Part shown: positions 55,243 to 63,840 of the stretch, one piece after another
Layout of the letters: every line of letters begins with the position of its first letter
Position numbering within the stretch: position 1 is the stretch's first letter
NCBI GenBank assembly: GCA_963780185.1
Contig: CAWABA010000006.1
Location: 32,001-96,000 of the forward strand
Length of the DNA stretch: 64,000 nucleotides
Reading direction: 5' to 3'
Source: Candidatus Bathyarchaeota archaeon
GTDB lineage: Archaea; Thermoproteota; Bathyarchaeia; Bathyarchaeales; Bathycorpusculaceae
The notes under the pieces: model-generated
What the model was told of the DNA's origin: nothing
Databases searched by the model: none
Seen by the model: the letters and a program-made list of their open reading frames with translations, nothing else
Program-made: the position numbers and the translations under genes

Positions 55243-56322
55243 TTAGGGTACAGGGTCGATTTTAATTTTTTCCGTATTCACGGCAGTTGTTAACGCGGGT
55301 TTTAGCTCAAGCCATTGCTGCGCTCCAAAGCCTATGATGAAAAATATCCAGAGGGTGATGATTCTTGTGAGTATGGTGGCTGTGGCAGCCATTGCTCCTG
55401 GGATGCCCATCGAAATGTAAAGTGTCGTCATTACTGCCTCGGGAAGCCCAACTTCAAAAGGTATGCCCACAGGAATCGATTTGACAGCTAAGAATATGGC
55501 TGAAGTGACAATAATTATGCTTATTGAAACCGGGTAATCCAGCGATTGAAAAACAAGATACGGGATGGCTAGGCTGAAAAACCAGGAAATAAGCAAGTAG
55601 GACAACGAAAAAGCTATAGCTCTGGGGTTATGACGGAACTCCTTCATTGAATCGTGAAAATGATCTGTAATCTCGATGCCTTCTTCTTTCAATTTTTCCA
55701 GCTTTATTTTTCCTCTACTGATTTTCCGTGCAAAACCCGTTACCCAATTAATCCCTTTTAAGGTCCATTCCCGCTTCAACGACAAAATTCCCATCAGAAC
55801 AAGTATCCCAACGATTACAACCGCGACGAAAATGATCAGATTAAAAACAACGGGATTAACGTTGCCTCCGAAAGTAAGCAACACTAACCCTGCGACTAAT
55901 GCAACAGCGTTTATGGCGGTGCCGAGGAACCTGTGAGTGTAAAGTGACGCAACAACTTTGCCGAATGAGCCGCATCCGTCCCTTGTAAGCAAATATGTTC
56001 GGGTAACCTCTCCGCTGATGGATTGCGCTGGAACAATCGTATCAACATACATGCCGTACCAAACATAGAGGTAAGCACGAACCAAACTCATCTTGATGGA
56101 AAGATGATTAGTCAAAACCTTCCACGAAACCGTGAAAAACAAAACCTGAAACAAACCGAAAACGATGGCAACTGAGTAAATTAACGGGTCAGCTTTTTTT
56201 GCCGTGGCAAAAATGCCGAAAATGTCCACTTTGAACAGATAAATATAAAGGAAAAAACCAAATAACCCCAACAGAGGAAAAATCACCGTTTTCCACGTAA
56301 ACTTCATCTTGGGAAGTTGCAT
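55243..56322 (-). CDS. Lysylphosphatidylglycerol-synthase TM / AglD2-like flippase family protein
   Basis: Multi-TM; VPAQSISGE...R, PFEVGLPE and LTRIITLW. Confidence 0.8.
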   Translation of the reverse strand: MQLPKMKFTWKTVIFPLLGLFGFFLYIYLFKVDIFGIFATAKKADPLIYSVAIVFGLFQVLFFTVSWKVLTNHLSIKMSLVRAYLYVWYGMYVDTIVPAQSISGEVTRTYLLTRDGCGSFGKVVASLYTHRFLGTAINAVALVAGLVLLTFGGNVNPVVFNLIIFVAVVIVGILVLMGILSLKREWTLKGINWVTGFARKISRGKIKLEKLKEEGIEITDHFHDSMKEFRHNPRAIAFSLSYLLISWFFSLAIPYLVFQSLDYPVSISIIIVTSAIFLAVKSIPVGIPFEVGLPEAVMTTLYISMGIPGAMAATATILTRIITLWIFFIIGFGAQQWLELKPALTTAVNTEKIKIDPVP

Positions 56323-56589
56323 TTGGCTTTTTGCACCTGAAGTAAACGGTGAAATGTGGAGCTAGGAATATATTCTTTGCCCAAATCCAAGCTGATATTT
56401 TTTCGAGTTACCCCGCGCTGAGCTTGACGGTGCAATTTGAAAAGTCGTGGCTTCAGATTTAGCCTTTAAGCTTCTTTTAAGGCTTAAAGCAAGATTTCGT
56501 AGAAATACTTCATGCTGCCAGCAGTGCAACAAAAGAATAAAAAAGCAAAAAAGAGTTAGATTGTTTTTTCAACACATCGAAAGCTTAGT

Positions 56590-57160
56590 TTAGTATCTCG
56601 GTCTGTAACCGCCGCCACCGGCTCCGCCGCCGCGACGATCCCGATTGTTTCTGTCTCTTCCGCCGCCATAACCGCCTGCCACCGTATCCTCCGCCGCCTC
56701 TACCGCCGCCGTATCCGCCTCTTCCGCCGCCGCCTCTGAATGGTCTGCGTTCTTGCTCGTATGCTTTGCTTGACACATTGTTTTCTGTGTTTACTTCAAC
56801 GGTCAATGGTTCCTTTGCTGGCTCAAGCTTGCCGTATTTGCCGATGTTCAGGCGGATGTTGCCTTTGAAAAGAGTAACATAGCCGTTTTCCACGCGTAAA
56901 GTGTCGCCTTCGTTTACTTTGTCGATGTTGTCATCCCAAAGTGTCAGGTACACAACGCCCGTTTCGTCACCGACCAGCGCGTCGCTCACCTTATGTGGCG
57001 AGCCGTCTCTGCCCATTGGAATTTCTCTGATTTCAGTCTTAGATACAACTTTGGCCGTAACGTTAACCGCTTTAGATTGTGGGGTTAAGTCGCCGACTTT
57101 AGCTTCTACTGGTGTCTTTTTGTTTTCGAAAAAACCTTCAACAGCCAATTGGTTCAACAT
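56590..57160 (-). CDS. ssb: Single-OB-fold ssDNA-binding protein with Gly/Arg-rich tail (frameshift in tail)
   Basis: KVGDLTP, VNVTAKVV, LVGDETG, LTLWD, NGYVTLFKGNIRLNIGKYG. Tail RGGGGRGGYGGGRGG.../GYGGGRDRNNRDRRGGGAGGGGYRPRY. Confidence 0.88.
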
Positions 57161-57570
57161 CCATATATTTTGGTTCTAAGACAAAACTACAAGCTCTCTA
57201 CACTTAAGTTTTTCGCTTCACCAATTCCCAACCAACCCCAAAAATTTTACCACCCATTTCCAATACACTTCCAAGCACCACCTTCACCCATGAAAACCTC
57301 GGCTCTCACGTCAACAAGGCAGAACACAGCTTTCTTTGTAAAACTAAAGGAAAATCACTAAAGACAAAGTATGTGCGACTACCCAATTGGATGTTTAGTC
57401 CAGCTTTATCGGGTGATTCAACTTGTCCCCTCTGAAGAGACGTCCAGTGTCAAATAAGGGAAAAAATGCTCGCTGAAATATTGAAATTTAAGCATTTGAT
57501 TAAATATTTTTTTATTATTGAACATTGTTTTAGGTGAACTGTATTGTTGTTGTACGTATATGCCTAGTCC

Positions 57571-57578
57571 TTATATAT
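57571..57578 (+). promoter_or_regulatory. Putative TATA box for the peptide transcript
   Basis: TTATATAT about 190 nt upstream of the peptide ATG. Confidence 0.45.
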
Positions 57579-57765
57579 TACAAGTTACGATATGCTATAT
57601 CAAAGCAGGGGATCAACGCCAACGTCACCACCCAAACTGCCGCTGGCGTAACATTTGCAACATAGATTGACAGGGAATAACTGCTCAGTTGGGTCAGTGT
57701 ATCTATGAAACTCCCAATTGGAAGAACCCAAACAATAATCGGTTAACTCGGGAAGAGGTGATGCA

Positions 57766-57822
57766 ATGAGCAAGAAAGCTATCAGAGCCAAAGGCAACAT
57801 ATACTGGGGCGGATGGGGTTAA
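57766..57822 (+). CDS. 18-aa putative precursor peptide MSKKAIRAKGNIYWGGWG (ComX-like, Trp-containing)
   Basis: SD GAGGTGA at 57755-57761, ATG 57766, TAA 57820-57822, then a T-tract; immediately upstream of a ComQ-like prenyltransferase. Confidence 0.7.
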   Translation: MSKKAIRAKGNIYWGGWG

Positions 57823-57839
57823 TTTTCCCAACCGAACCA

Positions 57840-57860
57840 TTTTTCTTTTTTTCTTTTTTT
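57840..57860 (+). terminator. Oligo-T archaeal terminator after the peptide ORF
   Basis: TTTTTCTTTTTTTCTTTTTTT. Confidence 0.6.
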
Positions 57861-57906
57861 AGAAAAAACCTAAATTCGATAAACATCAAAAGGAAAGCGT
57901 ATTGAT

Positions 57907-58902
57907 ATGACTTACAACTCACTAACCGACCATGCTTTAGATATAATTCGCCTTCATGGGAAACAGGTTTTGGATCAGGCTTGCCGAAAAATCCTTGAGT
58001 CTGACTACGGCGACGAAGCATTAAACGCCGCCATGAAGTATTATGCTCAGTCAACTCTTCAAAATGTCCTGCCGATTTTTCCCACCCTGATACATGTTTC
58101 CTGCGCTGCCGTAGGCGGCAACCCAGAAAAAACAAAATCTTTAGCCACTCCGATGATGCTAATTACCGCTTCAGGCGACATCCACGACGACATCATTGAC
58201 AAATCAAAACGGAAACTTCGAAGAAAAACGGTTTTCGGCAAATACGGAAAAGAAATGGCTATTCTTGTAGGAGACACCTTCTTAATCGAGGGAGTCACGC
58301 TTCTAAACAACGTCTGCGGCGACTTGCTGAGTGAGCAGAGAAAAACTATTTTCGATTTGGTAGAGAAATCAATGTTCGAAAGCATTAAAGCAGAGTTGGT
58401 TGAAACCCGATTGTGGAAGACGCCAGAAGTGACGCCTCAGGAGTATTTTGAAGTCCTCAAAATGAAAGGGAGCGTGGCTGAACTTCAATGCAGAGTAGGT
58501 GGAATAGTTGGGTGCGCCAACGGGAACGCTCTTTCTGAAATAGCGCGTTATGGCAGAGTAATTGGCATTTTGTCATCGGTGAAGGATGAATTTATGGATA
58601 TGAACAACTTTCCCGAGCTTAAACACCGCCTCAAACATGAATTGCCGCCCTACCCAGTCATTTACGCACGTCAAAACAAACTGTTAAGAAAAAAAATAGA
58701 TCCACTTATCAACAGGAAGGAGCCACTGAAAAAGAATCTTCAACTCATGGCTGATTTAGTCCTAAATTCCAAGGAAATTCAAAAGTTGAAGGCTGAGCTG
58801 GCGGAGTTGGGACAAAAGGAACTCAAAGAGAATTCTCTTTTGAAGGCTGAAAAAGGGAACGAGGCAGCGATTTTGCTTCAAGCCTTAGCTTGCGAAATGT
58901 AG
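57907..58902 (+). CDS. Divergent polyprenyl-synthetase-fold protein, candidate ComQ-like peptide prenyltransferase
   Basis: First Asp-rich motif DIHDDIID intact; RRG replaced (KRKLRRKT); AILVGD present; KT replaced by KG; second motif degenerate (KDEFMD). Confidence 0.75.
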   Translation: MTYNSLTDHALDIIRLHGKQVLDQACRKILESDYGDEALNAAMKYYAQSTLQNVLPIFPTLIHVSCAAVGGNPEKTKSLATPMMLITASGDIHDDIIDKSKRKLRRKTVFGKYGKEMAILVGDTFLIEGVTLLNNVCGDLLSEQRKTIFDLVEKSMFESIKAELVETRLWKTPEVTPQEYFEVLKMKGSVAELQCRVGGIVGCANGNALSEIARYGRVIGILSSVKDEFMDMNNFPELKHRLKHELPPYPVIYARQNKLLRKKIDPLINRKEPLKKNLQLMADLVLNSKEIQKLKAELAELGQKELKENSLLKAEKGNEAAILLQALACEM

Positions 58903-59081
58903 CCTAGACGCCTGAGTTTGCTTTTGGACAGGTTCGCTCGTCGACTTTTTGTTTTCCGCCCTTTTTCTTCCTCCACTGGATTGAACCTGTTGACTGGATT
59001 CAAAATATGGATTCAAACCTTAAATTTTGGCTTCTTAAAACTTAACTATTTTTTCACAGTACAACCGTTCCATGGATACCG

Positions 59082-60452
59082 ATGCCACTTAGCGGATTTA
59101 ACGTGAAGCTCGGTTCAGAGTCAAAGGATCTGTTAGTGGGCACTTTTCTGGTGGCAAATGCTTTTGTTTGGTATCTGAGTGCTTTTAGGTTTTTGTGGGG
59201 CGACTTCGCTGGCAATTCGTTGTTGGCGGTAATTTCCGTTAACGTTGTGTGTCTAATAATTACCGCTTTCTTTGTGACATTGCTAATGAATCGGTTCAAG
59301 CAGCGCCTAGTTTTTTTGAAATATTGGATTCTTGCGGGAATATTGCTCTCAGTGTCTTATGCATTTCTGGATTTTACTAATATTCTAAGCTCCATTATTG
59401 CATCGGGTTTTCTAGGGTTTTATTTTGGGGTAGGTATGCCCATCTGCATGGGGTATTTCGCTGCAACCAGCAAGTCTGAAAATCGGGGTAAGTCAGGCGC
59501 GATAATAATTCTCATGATAGGCTTTGGCTTTCCAATCCTTACTACCATCGGAGGTTCACAGAACCTTGTAATAGCTACCGCGTTAACGGCATGGCGATTT
59601 TTGGCTTTGGGCAGCTTATTTGTTTTTAAGCCCCTCGATAGAACGGCGGAGACTAAAAACGCGGTTTCTTATCGTTCGGTTATTGGAAACAAAACTTTCC
59701 TGTTGTATCTTGTTCCCTGGTTTATGTTTGTTCTCATAAATGAATTGGCGATGCAAATCAATGCGGATTACTTCAGCAAATTGTCCCAAGCCTTTTCCAA
59801 CAACTATTTAATTATAGAAAATGTTCTTTCAGGAATTTCCGCGGTTGTCTGTGGCTTTTTGGCTGACAAGAAGGGGAGAAAACGGATTGCTTTATTCGGT
59901 TTTGCACTTTTGGGTATAGGATATGCCGCTCTTGGTCTCTTCAACTCGGGCAATGTTGCAGGCAATGTTGCTTCGATTGCGGCTTGGTTTTACGTTTGTG
60001 CAGATGGAATAGCTTGGGGTGCTTTTGCCATGCTTTTCTTAGTTACAATTTGGGGGGACATAGCGCATGAGCGGAATAGTGAGAAATATTATTTCGTCGG
60101 TGTCCTTCCGTACTTAATTTCTAATTTGGCAGGTCACATGATGGGGTCGGTTATTTCAAAAAACATCTTGGACGACTCAGTTGGTACCGTTTTCTCTTTT
60201 GCAAGCTTCTTCCTATTCATCGCCATCTTGCCGCTGGCTTATGCCCCTGAAACCTTGTCTGAGAAAATCATGAGCAGGCTGGACATCAGCGACTACGTCG
60301 CCAAGGCTCTTGAAAAAGTCAAGAAGGAGGATTCGAGAAAACCGCAGGTACAAGCGGCGGCAGAGGAAAACGAAGAAAGTCAAGAACGGTCTTTAGGCTC
60401 ATCGCTGGAAGACGCTGAAGCAAAGAAACTGGCGGAAAAATACTACTATTGA
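59082..60452 (+). CDS. MFS-like 12-TM transporter with charged C-terminal tail
   Basis: ENRGKSGA, motif-A-like GFLADKKGRKR and APETL; about 12 hydrophobic helices. Confidence 0.8.
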   Translation: MPLSGFNVKLGSESKDLLVGTFLVANAFVWYLSAFRFLWGDFAGNSLLAVISVNVVCLIITAFFVTLLMNRFKQRLVFLKYWILAGILLSVSYAFLDFTNILSSIIASGFLGFYFGVGMPICMGYFAATSKSENRGKSGAIIILMIGFGFPILTTIGGSQNLVIATALTAWRFLALGSLFVFKPLDRTAETKNAVSYRSVIGNKTFLLYLVPWFMFVLINELAMQINADYFSKLSQAFSNNYLIIENVLSGISAVVCGFLADKKGRKRIALFGFALLGIGYAALGLFNSGNVAGNVASIAAWFYVCADGIAWGAFAMLFLVTIWGDIAHERNSEKYYFVGVLPYLISNLAGHMMGSVISKNILDDSVGTVFSFASFFLFIAILPLAYAPETLSEKIMSRLDISDYVAKALEKVKKEDSRKPQVQAAAEENEESQERSLGSSLEDAEAKKLAEKYYY

Positions 60453-60728
60453 ATCGCGGCTTGGTTTGGTTGGTTTCTACCTTTTTGTTGGTTTTGACCC
60501 TTGCGTTTTTGTGCAATGGTACCCAATAGGAGGGCAAACCATATACGGATTCAATATACACTTCCCATATACAGCCTATAGAAACTTGGCAAAAGCATTT
60601 GGTTATTTGGGCTTTTATTCTAAAGTTACGCGTGTTTAAAGAATTTAGGAGTCTAAAACAAAATATGAGCAAACAGCCTGCAATAGCTTTTTTAGTTATC
60701 GCTTTTAATTTATTTCGCTGATGCGTTT

Positions 60729-61763
60729 ATGTCTGAAGATATTTGGGTTCCAATGGATGGAGACACCTTTGTCACTAAAGACGGCTTCATCCTTAACACC
60801 TTCGGCTACGAACATCCCGACGACCGCGTATTCGCGTTCCTAAAGTACATTCCCGCCCAGTACAGGGAACTCTTCAATGTGGAAATGCTGGAACGCACCT
60901 GGAAGTTCGGCGGCAATCAGCTTTTCAGGGCTGAAAAACTCTACACGGCAAAGAATTATCAGACCTTCATCGAGGCGTTCCGCAAAAACTTCCCCGACTA
61001 CCTCTACTTCTGCCCCTTCCGCAACAAAGAACTAATCACCGCGCCGTTTGACCGCATAGAGCAGGTTTTTGTTCCCAAAGACCGATTGGTTTGGCTGACG
61101 AACCTGCCGAAACGCGACAAACTGCAGCAGATGGCGCTTGACCTCATCAATTTAATCTCTAAAGAATCAGGCGTCGACCTATGCGACCTTGGGAATTCAC
61201 GGCTCAATTGCCCTGCAGATGCATGCGCCCGAATCCGACATCGACTTTGTCGTTTACGGCACCGAAAACTTCCGCCAAGTTGAAGAAGCAATCGCGCGGC
61301 TTGTTAATGCTGGAAAACTCACCTACATCGTGGGCAACCGCATTGAAGCCGCAAGAAAATTCCAAGGAAGGTACCAAGGAAAAATCTTCATGTACAACGC
61401 CACCAAAAAACCTGAGCAAATCAAGGAAAAATATGGCGCTTACCGCTACGTCCCGCTTGACCCAGTAAGATTTGAAGCCACCGTCAGCGACGACACGGAA
61501 ACCATGTATCGTCCCGCAGATATACGGGATTTCGGGTTACAAGCCTTTGGATGACCAGTCTGAACTTGAATTAGACAAGATACCTCTCGCAAGTTGTTTC
61601 AAACATTGGGCTTTACCGAAACGTTGCAAGGTGCGGCAGCACAATCAGGGTTTCTGGCAAACTTGAACGGGTCGAATCTACAACTTCGAGCGAGGTTCAT
61701 TATCAGGTGGTTGTTGGAACAGCTACGTCAGAGGAAGAATACATTTGGCCAGTAATAGCGTAG
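60729..61763 (+). CDS. Pol-beta superfamily nucleotidyltransferase (COG1665-like) paralogue 1, frameshifted
   Basis: [54 protein letters not shown] and a C-terminal GKLERV...QVVVGT. Confidence 0.8.
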
Positions 61764-62824
61764 CGCTGCGGGACCGCGACGCCATCGAAACCGCTGAAGG
61801 CTTAATCTTCCGTGTCTTCGGCTACTCGCATCCGCCAGCCGCCTACATCTGCGACGCCGAGTATGCTTCATCAAAAATTTTCCAGTCAAAAGACCCCCGA
61901 GCGCCGCGAGAAGGCAAAGGGCAGCTTTACTTTAAATTCTACAACGACGAAGGCATGAAACTCGTCTACAAAAAGTACCCGCAGTACCAAGTTTTCCACG
62001 AAATGCTCGGGCTAAACCTTGTCGGAGTAAAAAACGGCGACATCGCCGAAGCCAGAAAACCCGAGGTGCGACTGCAAAAGCTGCTTGACGCGGGTCCAAC
62101 AGATGAGTTGTTGGCAGCTATGGAGCGGGTCCTTATGATATCGCTCAATAATTCAGGGTTGAAAACGGAGAATTTCGGTGTCTTCGGCTCCATGCTGCAT
62201 GGATTTCATCACCCCAAATTTTCAGATATCGACCTGATAGTTTACGGCAAAAAAGAGAACGCCAAAATGCGACGAAACACTCCAAGCCCTGTACGCTGAT
62301 GCCCAGTCTGGTTTTCATAACGAGTTCGAGTCTGACAAAGCCATGGAGGGTAAGGATTGGCGTTTCCAAAACTTTACCGTTGAAGACTTCGTTTGGCATC
62401 AACGCAGAAAACAGATTTACGGGTTATACGATGACAAAGCAAGCGGGCGAACCATTAAAGCCGAGTTTGAACCTGTGAAGGCTTGGAGCGAAATCAAATC
62501 AGAATACGATCCGCGGACGTGCATAACACAGCAGGGGCTGGGTTAAACTTAAAGCGCGCATAACAGCCGACGACGAGGCGCCGTTTATTCCGTCGATCTA
62601 TGGCATTGAGCCTCTGGAGGTTATCAGCGGTCCAAAGGAAGCGTTCGAGGTGCACGAGGGTTTTCTCTTTCATGGAGGAGTTCCGTCAGCAGGCACAAAA
62701 AGACGAAGAAGTCTTGGTTGAAGGGAATCTTGAAGAAGTTATGTCGCCAACTGAACAATTCCACCAGGTCACATTGACTTATTGCCCACGCTACTACGAA
62801 CAAGTCCTCAAAGTGCAGCATTAA
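61745..62824 (+). CDS. Nucleotidyltransferase (COG1665-like) paralogue 2, frameshifted
   Basis: RDRDAIETAEGLIFRVFGYSHP, GVFGSMLHGFHHPKFSDIDLIVYG and VEGNLEEV. Confidence 0.8.
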
Positions 62825-63840
62825 ATACGCGAGAGAACCATGTAGTCTGACGGTTTGTTCCCAAGGATTAAGCGGTAATGTTCGGTGCCTGTTTTGTTGT
62901 CTGTGACCAATTCAACTTTTCCCTGAGCCTCAATCGTCTCGCCGTTTTCTGCTTGTTCACAGAATCTGCCGCGGAATGAAACAATCTCATCTATTGACGG
63001 CAAGTTGGGTCCTTCAACAATTTGAGTGTCTTGCAGCTTGTAGGAGCAGGGCGTGAAAAGCGAGTCTGCTCCGTCAGCTATTTTGGCAACTATTTTTGCG
63101 TAGCCGCTGTTTTTGAAGCATACGTCTCCGTATTGCTCGCTGATTTCGCGCCAATCCTTCACGAAGCGGATGAAGTAGTCTGTGCCCATGAACTTGCCTT
63201 GGAACGCCTTGCGGCTTTCGACCAAAACGAAATCTTCGAAGCTCATCTGAGTATCCTTCGAACGGAAATCGAAAAGCTCCTGCAGCTCCCCCTCCGTATA
63301 AGCCTTGAACCCTGAATGCTCATCCTCACGAAGCCTTTTGAGAGCAGCGTAAGCGTTTCTGCAGTTTTCCACGCCGTAAACAAGGGGGTCGATGTCTGAC
63401 TTCTCCGTTGTTAACCCAGCCATTATCGAGCCTGAAATGCCTATGCTGCTCCATGGGATGCCTGCTTCTTTTTTGAGGGTTTCCGCCAGCTGCAAGGCTT
63501 TGCTTTCTAAAACGGTGAGGTCTTTGGAGGTGCGTAGTGCCCAGAGTTTTTCTTCAGGCTTGTAGTGCTCAGCCACCTGATCAACAGGAACTTCACACAT
63601 AGTCTCGCCCATTACGGCGTCAAAAACGATGAGGTCAGGGTAATTTTCCTGCAGGTACTTGAATCGGTCGCCCAGACTGTACACTTTGCCGTAAAGGCTG
63701 TCTTTGCCCTGCCGTGTGCCCTGAGGCGAAGGAATGAACCGTGGAAAAGCAACGATTTTTCCCGCTGGATGCGTTAAGCCTTTAACGTCAAAAACCACGC
63801 CGCTTTTCGTTTTGATTAAGTCGCCTTCACGTGCCCTCAC
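62821..63840 (-). CDS. Nucleotidyltransferase (COG1665-like) paralogue 3
   Basis: REGDLIKTKSGVVFDVKGLTHP, GISGSIMAGLTTEKSDIDPLVYG and SFRGRFCEQA...GKVELV. Confidence 0.85.
   Translation of the reverse strand: MRAREGDLIKTKSGVVFDVKGLTHPAGKIVAFPRFIPSPQGTRQGKDSLYGKVYSLGDRFKYLQENYPDLIVFDAVMGETMCEVPVDQVAEHYKPEEKLWALRTSKDLTVLESKALQLAETLKKEAGIPWSSIGISGSIMAGLTTEKSDIDPLVYGVENCRNAYAALKRLREDEHSGFKAYTEGELQELFDFRSKDTQMSFEDFVLVESRKAFQGKFMGTDYFIRFVKDWREISEQYGDVCFKNSGYAKIVAKIADGADSLFTPCSYKLQDTQIVEGPNLPSIDEIVSFRGRFCEQAENGETIEAQGKVELVTDNKTGTEHYRLILGNKPSDYMVLSRI

Follow-up and report, generated by a model that had tools for sequence, protein, structure and literature searches.

An 18-codon open reading frame (ORF) in the genome of a Candidatus Bathyarchaeota archaeon is a real, conserved gene, and the peptide that it encodes may be the substrate of a prenyltransferase. 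The ORF lies in a 64,000-nucleotide stretch of assembly GCA_963780185.1 (contig CAWABA010000006.1, positions 32,001 to 96,000; here called the window, numbered from its first letter), upstream of two genes on the same strand, one for an enzyme with the fold of isoprenyl diphosphate synthases (IDS) and one for a membrane protein resembling the major facilitator superfamily (MFS). Our favored reading, on which we are evenly divided, is that these genes make up a leaderless system of the kind that yields peptides made on the ribosome and modified after translation (RiPPs), in which a terminal Trp would be prenylated as it is by PalQ or ComQ, with an independent origin. The elements concerned are as follows.

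57766 to 57822 (including the stop codon), plus strand: unannotated 18-codon gene for a candidate precursor or substrate peptide, MSKKAIRAKGNIYWGGWG (sequence read and family conservation).
57755 to 57761, plus strand: Shine-Dalgarno (SD)-like GAGGTGA, 4 nt 5' of the ATG of the small ORF (sequence read).
57907 to 58902, plus strand: gene for a 331-residue enzyme of the trans-IDS fold, a candidate Trp or peptide prenyltransferase (Pfam, motifs, AlphaFold2 model and Foldseek).
59082 to 60452, plus strand: gene for a 456-residue MFS-like membrane protein, a candidate exporter (MFS_1 score, hydrophobic segments and conserved pairing).

The small ORF runs from an ATG at 57766 to a TAA at 57820 to 57822 and encodes MSKKAIRAKGNIYWGGWG. 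A first-pass annotation of the window had described it as SD led, with GAGGTGA 4 nt before the ATG, a basic N-terminal half, and Trp at positions -2 and -5 counted from the C terminus; the sequence reads as described, and both the basic motif and a Trp are conserved in the family set out below. When we scanned the window's genome (2.75 Mb, 93% complete) for SD-led short ORFs with at least three Lys or Arg residues and the ending G-W-x(0-2), seven were found, and the combination of ATG, GAGGTGA, and basic motif occurred only in the ORF at 57766 to 57822. A profile of the peptide family matched this ORF with an E value of 1.1e-5, the next match in the genome having an E value of 0.57. The 3' end of 16S rRNA, which we sought in the genome to confirm the anti-SD sequence, gave no match, so that the conserved GGAGGTGA-type motif is the whole basis of the SD argument. 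An SD-like core (GGTGA, GAGGT, or GGAGG) lies 3 to 12 nt 5' of the start in 25 of the 26 listed peptide ORFs and is conserved in the alignment of relatives. The idea that the locus is an RNA gene was dropped after a permissive Rfam scan (maximum E value of 1) of positions 56000 to 61000 found no family and ARAGORN, run over the window, found no tRNA at the small ORF.

The first-pass annotation had predicted that homologues of the enzyme gene in archaeal metagenome-assembled genomes would be preceded by short SD-led ORFs with a Trp-containing C terminus, and conserved ORFs of this description were found when we scanned upstream of such homologues at 79 related Bathyarchaeia loci. Homologous ORFs of 13 to 21 codons occur at 31 of these loci: at 27 they lie on the same strand as the enzyme gene, 59 to 231 nt 5' of it, and at 4 more they lie on the opposite strand in an inverted arrangement (type C). 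When 285 SD-led intergenic small ORFs taken from the 79 loci were clustered without bias, the single large cluster that emerged was the peptide family (22 loci); the clustering also uncovered type C, the third peptide type. As a candidate RiPP precursor, the peptide has a full length of only 13 to 21 residues, with a basic N-terminal half (K-[KR]-x-I-[RK]-[AG]-K) and a Gly-Trp end that are both conserved; Trp stands at or next to the C terminus, and Gly usually precedes it. Trp is the last residue in type A peptides (M-N-x-K-R-A-I-K-A-K-x3-[WF]-G-G-W), is followed by one residue in type B peptides ((M)-N-K-K-I-I-R-[AG]-K-P-x3-G-W-[YHILMVW]), and is again last in type C peptides (...K-P-x-P-T-S-V-G-M-W-W and M-A-K-R-A-V-R-A-K-G-G-V-x-P-T-V-V-x-V-W-W). 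The window and three close relatives have the end ...Y-W-G-G-W-G, GGWG being the form of the window's subclade. An alignment of 26 peptides showed Met1 and Trp to be invariant, the Gly before Trp to be at least 90% conserved, and the middle to be variable. That Gly is encoded by GGC, GGT, and GGA (10, 9, and 7 times, respectively, in the 26 peptides), and conservation therefore acts at the amino acid level. Indels in the peptide ORFs are in frame, and the stop codon is TAA in all 26 listed.

Because a sample anchored on the enzyme cannot show that the peptide occurs exclusively beside it, we also ran the peptide profile against 401 genomes of the order (E ≤ 0.001). The profile matched 26 genomes, with a single copy in each except for one genome with a second match, and all 26 belong to one family and to 2 of the 117 genera sampled (19 of 88 and 6 of 23 species). 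Type C peptides were not included in the profile, and this taxonomic range is therefore a lower bound. For 24 of the 27 matches, an IDS-like gene starts 72 to 218 nt 3' on the same strand; two of the remaining matches sit at the ends of contigs, and the last carries an in-frame TAG and has no neighbors. Thus, none of the 24 assessable matches placed the peptide away from an IDS-like gene, which points to a tight and exclusive linkage of the peptide to the enzyme gene. The match with the in-frame TAG (G001:C3:87903-87953, locus L144) is the weak second match of its genome, reading MSSKRNVR, the TAG, and then LPMWAGWY..., with no IDS-like, MFS-like, or protease gene as a neighbor; this could be a copy in decay or a match by chance.

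The link between peptide, enzyme, and MFS-like protein outlasts at least three rearrangements. In the window, the three genes stand apart from those for leucyl-tRNA synthetase (LeuRS) and a radical S-adenosylmethionine (rSAM) enzyme, and a protease gene has been deleted; at the four type C loci, the protease, peptide, and MFS-like genes are divergent from the enzyme gene; and at some loci an extra IDS/MFS pair is inserted 5' of the peptide gene. The minimal invariant set is the peptide, the IDS-like enzyme, and the MFS-like protein.

The phylogeny of the enzyme agrees with the earlier expectation that precursor and enzyme would co-vary. A quick maximum-likelihood tree of 81 rows (78 loci, the window, the paralogue, and a geranylgeranyl diphosphate synthase [GGPPS] as the outgroup; locus L069 was omitted for its frameshifted enzyme) placed all 27 peptide-labeled rows inside one clade of 36 rows (SH-aLRT of 100). 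Type A and type B enzymes formed separate subclades (support of 99 and 90, respectively), and the four type C enzymes, labeled "no peptide" in that run, formed their own clade elsewhere in the tree (support of 99). Peptide type therefore tracks enzyme clade, with A, B, and C each in its own subclade. Nine rows of the 36-row clade have no peptide, one of them with merely 45 nt of upstream sequence. At L069 (2965 to 3985), the enzyme gene is split into two ORFs by a frameshift or an assembly indel, and the peptide ORF is intact.

The enzyme gene starts 84 nt after the stop codon of the small ORF, directly downstream as the first-pass annotation had it, and its product scores 65 bits with the Pfam model polyprenyl_synt (PF00348; cut-off, 27 bits). 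The canonical GGPPS of the same genome (C4:114052-114819) scores 208 bits with this model, and the genome also has two divergent IDS paralogues of about 65 bits. With NCBIfam, the enzyme fell below the cut-off of every model, the best synthase model giving 79 bits against a cut-off of 468. Foldseek searches with an AlphaFold2 model of high predicted accuracy (pLDDT of 95.9) returned the GGPPS of P. horikoshii (1wy0) as the best match (TM score of 0.82), the top GGPPS and long-chain IDS matches spanning TM scores of 0.72 to 0.82, and the Trp farnesyltransferase Ord1 aligned with TM scores of 0.73 to 0.75. A sequence search of the PDB likewise ranked 1wy0 first (63 bits) and Ord1 second (48.8 bits, E = 6e-12), and a profile search gave 131 bits for archaeal GGPPS and 87 for Ord1. 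An ESM Atlas search returned only Bathyarchaeial "polyprenyl synthetase" clusters, and homologues carry the automatic names "geranylgeranyl pyrophosphate synthase," "heptaprenyl diphosphate synthase," and "polyprenyl synthetase family protein."

The enzyme's first Asp-rich motif (FARM) is intact (D94 D95 I I D98), and D91, H93, D94, D95, D98, S100, K103, T108, E237, and R241 are invariant across 74 family sequences; the site for the allylic diphosphate has therefore been kept. The GKRxR loop of synthases binds isopentenyl diphosphate (IPP). At this position, the genome's GGPPS has GGKRWRP and the window's enzyme has NVLPIFP, the family consensus having no Lys or Arg there; at the second motif, the GGPPS has FQMQDDILD, the window's enzyme has SSVKDEFMD, and the family has x-[DE/AS]-E-F-x-D. 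The enzyme is thus without the GKRxR loop, the Gln of FQ, and the DDxxD form of its second Asp-rich motif (SARM), and the missing loop makes an elongating synthase unlikely. Chain length is governed by the residues before the FARM, and here (residues 88 to 90) these are A/S/G, small residues that suggest room for long donors. By its sequence, then, the enzyme looks like a nonelongating prenyltransferase. The alignment columns that best separate peptide-linked enzymes from the others lie at the former IPP loop, where a two-residue insertion gives L-P-[IV]-F-P; this signal is confounded by descent and is not present in type C enzymes. Co-folding of enzyme and peptide gave ipSAE values of 0.02 and 0.17 (mark, 0.32), which are evidence neither way, an 18-residue partner being outside the calibration of the tool.

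The MFS-like gene is co-oriented, as first noted. Its product has 12 hydrophobic 19-mers and a charged cytoplasmic tail of about 60 residues ending in AKKLAEKYYY; it scores 30.8 bits with MFS_1, below the cut-off of 33.4, and the homologue at L063 scores 45.9, above it. An MFS-like gene is present on either strand at 73 of the 79 loci and lies 3' of the enzyme gene on the same strand at 70 of the 79; of the six loci without it, five are truncated and one is of type C. The tail (window positions 60270 to 60452; homologues L035 to L112) ends in A[KR]KLAEKYY before the stop at about 33 of the 73 loci and in EKAKKIKEKY[ATG] at others, and this conserved cytoplasmic end may be a docking motif. At L039 (4207 to 5458), L087 (4303 to 5498), and L069, the MFS-like gene is split into two ORFs by a frameshift or an assembly indel, and the peptide ORF is intact.

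Known systems offer precedents for such an arrangement. According to a 2026 review (PMC13290415) and a further paper (PMC10853753), every characterized trans-IDS-like peptide prenyltransferase targets Trp, ComQ has kept the FARM and has no SARM, and PalQ requires a C-terminal Trp, with Gly flanks making an internal Trp accessible. The review treats ComQ, PalQ, and ChrPC, the IDS-like enzymes that prenylate Trp, as bacterial and reports a Gln before the second motif that is common to ComQ, PalQ, ChrPC, and Ord1 and was mutated in Ord1 Q216A. The first-pass annotation knew of no characterized archaeal example, and our literature search of 8.1 million PMC papers and 0.36 million preprints likewise found no archaeal Trp-prenylating counterpart.

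By analogy, the closest functional counterpart would be PalQ, with its C-terminal Trp, rather than ComQ. As with PalQ and PalX of Paenibacillus alvei, an IDS-fold enzyme stands beside a short precursor with a conserved C-terminal Trp (archaeal types A and C end in Trp), and automatic annotation gives homologues of both enzymes nothing more specific than terpene or isoprenoid synthase names; the Gly flanks of the archaeal peptides also resemble variants that PalQ tolerates. However, PalX carries an NHLP leader some 70 residues long, with a histidine kinase as a neighbor, whereas the archaeal peptide is 13 to 21 residues in total, its neighbors encode MFS-like, S1 protease, and rSAM/SPASM proteins, and the host is an archaeon; the archaeal enzyme has Ser224 in place of the Gln, and the window's peptide has one Gly after Trp. 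The likeness to ComQ and ComX of Bacillus, from which the first-pass annotation had named the system, holds for the IDS homology, the kept first motif and improper second one, and the small adjacent product with Trp near its C terminus. ComX, whose precursors have about 55 residues, is longer and has a cleaved leader, and ComQ belongs to a comQXPA operon with a two-component sensor, whereas we saw no kinase or regulator at the archaeal locus. ComQ prenylates the Trp of ComX and the product is exported; the corresponding archaeal steps would be the same only by analogy. Ord1 (PDB 9v4g-j) and the P domain of ChrPC have the same fold, and in Ord1 the acceptor is an indole, but the substrate of Ord1 is free tryptophan, and Ord1 has retained Q216 and D219-D220 where the archaeal enzyme has S224 and D227-E228. 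Canonical archaeal GGPPS (1wy0; C4:114052-114819) is the best match in both sequence and fold, sharing the first Asp-rich motif and the helical bundle, but the family enzyme is without GGKRxRP and FQ, has xExxD for DDxxD, and is paired with an MFS-like gene. The archaeal system may thus work like ComQ or PalQ, but it does not appear to belong to the ComQ family, since the Gln is absent and the enzyme's sequence resembles archaeal GGPPS more than Ord1.

The minimal trio is constant, but the three-gene cluster of the first-pass annotation is not the whole of the ancestral arrangement, which has more than three genes (S1 protease, peptide, IDS-like, MFS-like, and often rSAM/SPASM) and of which the window is a reduced version. 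The fuller order in relatives is LeuRS (minus strand), S1 protease, peptide, IDS-like, MFS-like, and rSAM/SPASM. Three further features of the window belong here.

57612 to 57698, plus strand: decayed remnant of an S1 (trypsin-like) protease gene, its last ~29 codons (tblastn).
57840 to 57860, plus strand: T-rich run 3' of the small ORF, resembling an archaeal terminator (sequence; a T-rich stretch after the stop is also present in aligned relatives).
57869 to 57886, plus strand: TATA-like A/T-rich box ~21 to 38 nt 5' of the enzyme ATG (aligns with the box TTAATTTACAAATA, which is conserved in clade A relatives).

The remnant was recognized by tblastn with nine intact protease homologues (38 to 46% identity over 27 to 29 residues, two in-frame stops, E values of 2e-5 to 8e-4 against a 900-nt target) and is also present in L034; no further S1 protease homologue was found in the window's genome at E ≤ 1e-4. 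The intact S1/trypsin-like protease of relatives has an N-terminal hydrophobic anchor and is predicted to be secreted. Its gene lies 5' on the same strand at 19 of the 79 loci, all with the peptide, and on the opposite strand at 4, all of type C; eight loci have the peptide without a protease match. In intact clusters, the peptide gene begins 35 to 42 nt after the protease stop, and a T-run and a conserved TATA-like box lie between the peptide gene and the enzyme gene, which has no SD. Oligo-T is a termination signal for archaeal RNA polymerase, and the T-rich run at 57840 to 57860 is a putative terminator. The enzyme gene is probably leaderless, with the TATA-like box serving as its own predicted promoter.

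The rSAM gene is present at 50 of the 79 loci, being found at 15 of the 27 peptide loci and at 35 of the 48 peptide-less ones; among peptide loci whose downstream sequence extends for 3 kb or more, eight are without it. The rSAM/SPASM protein of relatives scores 298 bits with TIGR04084, its next-best models being peptide maturases such as PapB, and the trio of IDS-like, MFS-like, and rSAM genes is widespread in Bathyarchaeia. The PMC papers and preprints that we searched made no mention of TIGR04084. In the window's genome, the enzyme and MFS-like genes are co-duplicated, with a second pair at C6:25958-26953 and C6:27153-28460, and the sole TIGR04084 gene (C6:28497-29612, 317 bits) lies 3' of that pair, about 60 kb from the small ORF. 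This second region (C6:25958-29612, L033/L113), about 2 to 6 kb 5' of the window's first base, encodes an IDS-like protein of 331 residues (32% identical) and an MFS-like protein of 435 residues, and no small peptide ORF was found upstream of the pair. The usual upstream neighbor of the cluster is a divergent LeuRS-like gene (31 of the 79 loci, including L005, L006, L009, L014, L016, L021, L023, and many of L046 to L112). A conserved "ORF" 5' of other enzyme homologues (the L005 group) proved to be the opposite strand of this gene and was discarded. Downstream of the MFS-like gene, the window has three paralogous genes with nucleotidyltransferase domains, at 60729 to 61757 (plus strand), 61745 to 62546 (plus strand), and 62821 to 63840 (minus strand). 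The first shows three frameshifts (frames 3/1/2/3) relative to an intact 334-residue homologue (L035:5610-6614), through decay or assembly indels; the second seems to be split as well; the third is intact.

In the favored reading, the enzyme would hold an allylic prenyl diphosphate through the intact FARM and the conserved K103, K187, and R241 and, because it has no IPP site, would move the prenyl group onto the indole of the terminal Trp rather than elongate a chain. The small residues at 88 to 90 suggest that the donor is probably long (C15 to C20), geranylgeranyl diphosphate (GGPP) being the abundant archaeal donor. The paired MFS-like protein would then export or flip the lipopeptide. More speculatively, the secreted S1 protease of relatives, seemingly cotranscribed with the peptide, might trim the basic N-terminal half outside the cell, and the rSAM/SPASM enzyme of relatives might add a further modification. 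The window's lineage would have lost the protease and kept peptide, enzyme, and transporter. What the system makes would be a Trp-prenylated peptide, either cationic or trimmed, with a role as a signal or a membrane-active agent. We favor Trp prenylation followed by export because the invariant trio persists through rearrangements and because the literature describes Trp-targeting enzymes of the trans-IDS-like type.

Several observations weigh against this reading. At 48 of the 79 loci, the IDS-like/MFS-like pair is present without the peptide, so the basic activity of the family needs no adjacent peptide; together with the eight assessable members of the peptide clade that have none (LeuRS abuts the enzyme gene, or no candidate ORF is present), this implies that the ancestral acceptor was something else or is encoded elsewhere. 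The association of peptide and enzyme is largely vertical and confined to 2 of the 117 sampled genera. The Gln reported before the second motif of ComQ, PalQ, ChrPC, and Ord1 is replaced by Ser224, with which Ord1 Q216 aligns (the family column is T/I/L or T/A/I, and the preceding column, 223, is S/M/A), and the peptide has no long leader, unlike ComX or PalX. Finally, the protease gene adjoins the peptide gene and a T-run and promoter-like box precede the enzyme gene, and the tightest transcriptional link of the peptide may therefore be to the protease.

The main rival account, which we consider rather unlikely, accepts the peptide as real but assigns it to another partner: the rSAM/SPASM enzyme would act on it (forming, for example, a Lys-Trp or another Trp cross-link, as in the streptide type), or it would serve the S1 protease as substrate or regulator, and the IDS-like and MFS-like proteins would make and export an isoprenoid that has nothing to do with it. 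Streptide-type RiPPs have Trp cross-links made by rSAM/SPASM enzymes, and in many relatives such a gene does lie near a short precursor in which Lys and Trp are conserved. The rSAM gene 3' of the MFS-like gene at 50 loci, including 15 of the 27 with a peptide, its high TIGR04084 score with peptide maturases next in rank, and the frequency of the IDS/MFS/rSAM trio without a peptide all fit this account, as does the fact that all 23 protease loci, in both arrangements, carry the peptide directly behind the protease. The window's lineage, however, keeps an intact peptide in a genome without a protease homologue, and its only TIGR04084 gene is some 60 kb away beside the paralogous pair. The rSAM gene is missing from the window's locus and from the eight assessable peptide loci mentioned above and is common at loci without a peptide, and eight peptide loci have no protease match, whereas the peptide is beside an IDS-like gene in all 24 assessable cases. 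RiPP rSAM enzymes are expected to carry an N-terminal domain for peptide recognition, but TIGR04084 begins at the CxxxCxxC core without one.

If the product of the ORF is not modified at all, the ORF could be a translated leader or upstream ORF that adjusts how strongly the neighboring genes are expressed, or it could encode a basic microprotein that binds and regulates the transporter or enzyme. Bacterial small proteins that regulate transporters are known, the ORF is short and SD led with a T-run between it and the enzyme gene, and the enzyme family operates without the peptide in most genomes. We nevertheless regard a regulatory role as very improbable. Both ends of the peptide are conserved at the amino acid level with synonymous variation, which indicates a functional product and not mere translation; attenuation would have little to act on, because a promoter-like box of the enzyme gene's own lies 21 to 38 nt 5' of its ATG; and in type C loci the peptide gene precedes the MFS-like gene and not the enzyme gene. 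In the literature, moreover, a C-terminal or near-terminal Trp with Gly flanks is the signature of known substrates of Trp prenyltransferases. Attenuation at Trp codons was rejected on the same evidence of amino acid conservation and a separate promoter-like box. That a chance ORF merely adjoins an ordinary chain-elongating geranylgeranyl or polyprenyl diphosphate synthase is hardly credible, even with a PF00348 score above the cut-off and public annotations that call homologues GGPP, heptaprenyl, or polyprenyl synthases. The chance ORF is already contradicted by a family with coding signatures at 31 of the 79 loci and in 26 genomes, and the ordinary synthase is opposed by the canonical GGPPS elsewhere in the genome (208 versus 65 bits), by the missing IPP-binding loop and DDxxD motif, and by NCBIfam synthase models of which none comes near its cut-off (79 versus 468 bits at best).

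The small gene is in any case a clear case of a conserved gene of fewer than 20 codons, its product falling below the 20-residue minimum of some sequence tools. Taking Trp prenylation further, one could propose that Bathyarchaeia make a geranylgeranyl- or farnesyl-Trp lipopeptide from a leaderless gene product of 13 to 21 residues, with an enzyme derived from archaeal GGPPS independently of ComQ and PalQ. Such a product would rank as the first prenylated RiPP from an archaeon and as a candidate archaeal cell-cell signal, and the idea would extend to the Bathyarchaeial family of IDS-like and MFS-like proteins as a whole (232 relatives in the contig collection searched), which would consist of prenyltransferase-exporter pairs with other peptide or protein acceptors. 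Taken as a whole, we think this bolder proposal unlikely. If prenylation of the peptide is true, peptide prenylation, and possibly pheromone-type signaling, would reach an abundant uncultured class of archaea, GGPPS would have been recruited convergently to indole prenylation without the Gln of the bacterial enzymes, and an extremely small leaderless substrate-enzyme pair would be of use in biocatalysis for peptide lipidation. It would also correct the naming of a family now automatically called GGPP or heptaprenyl synthase.

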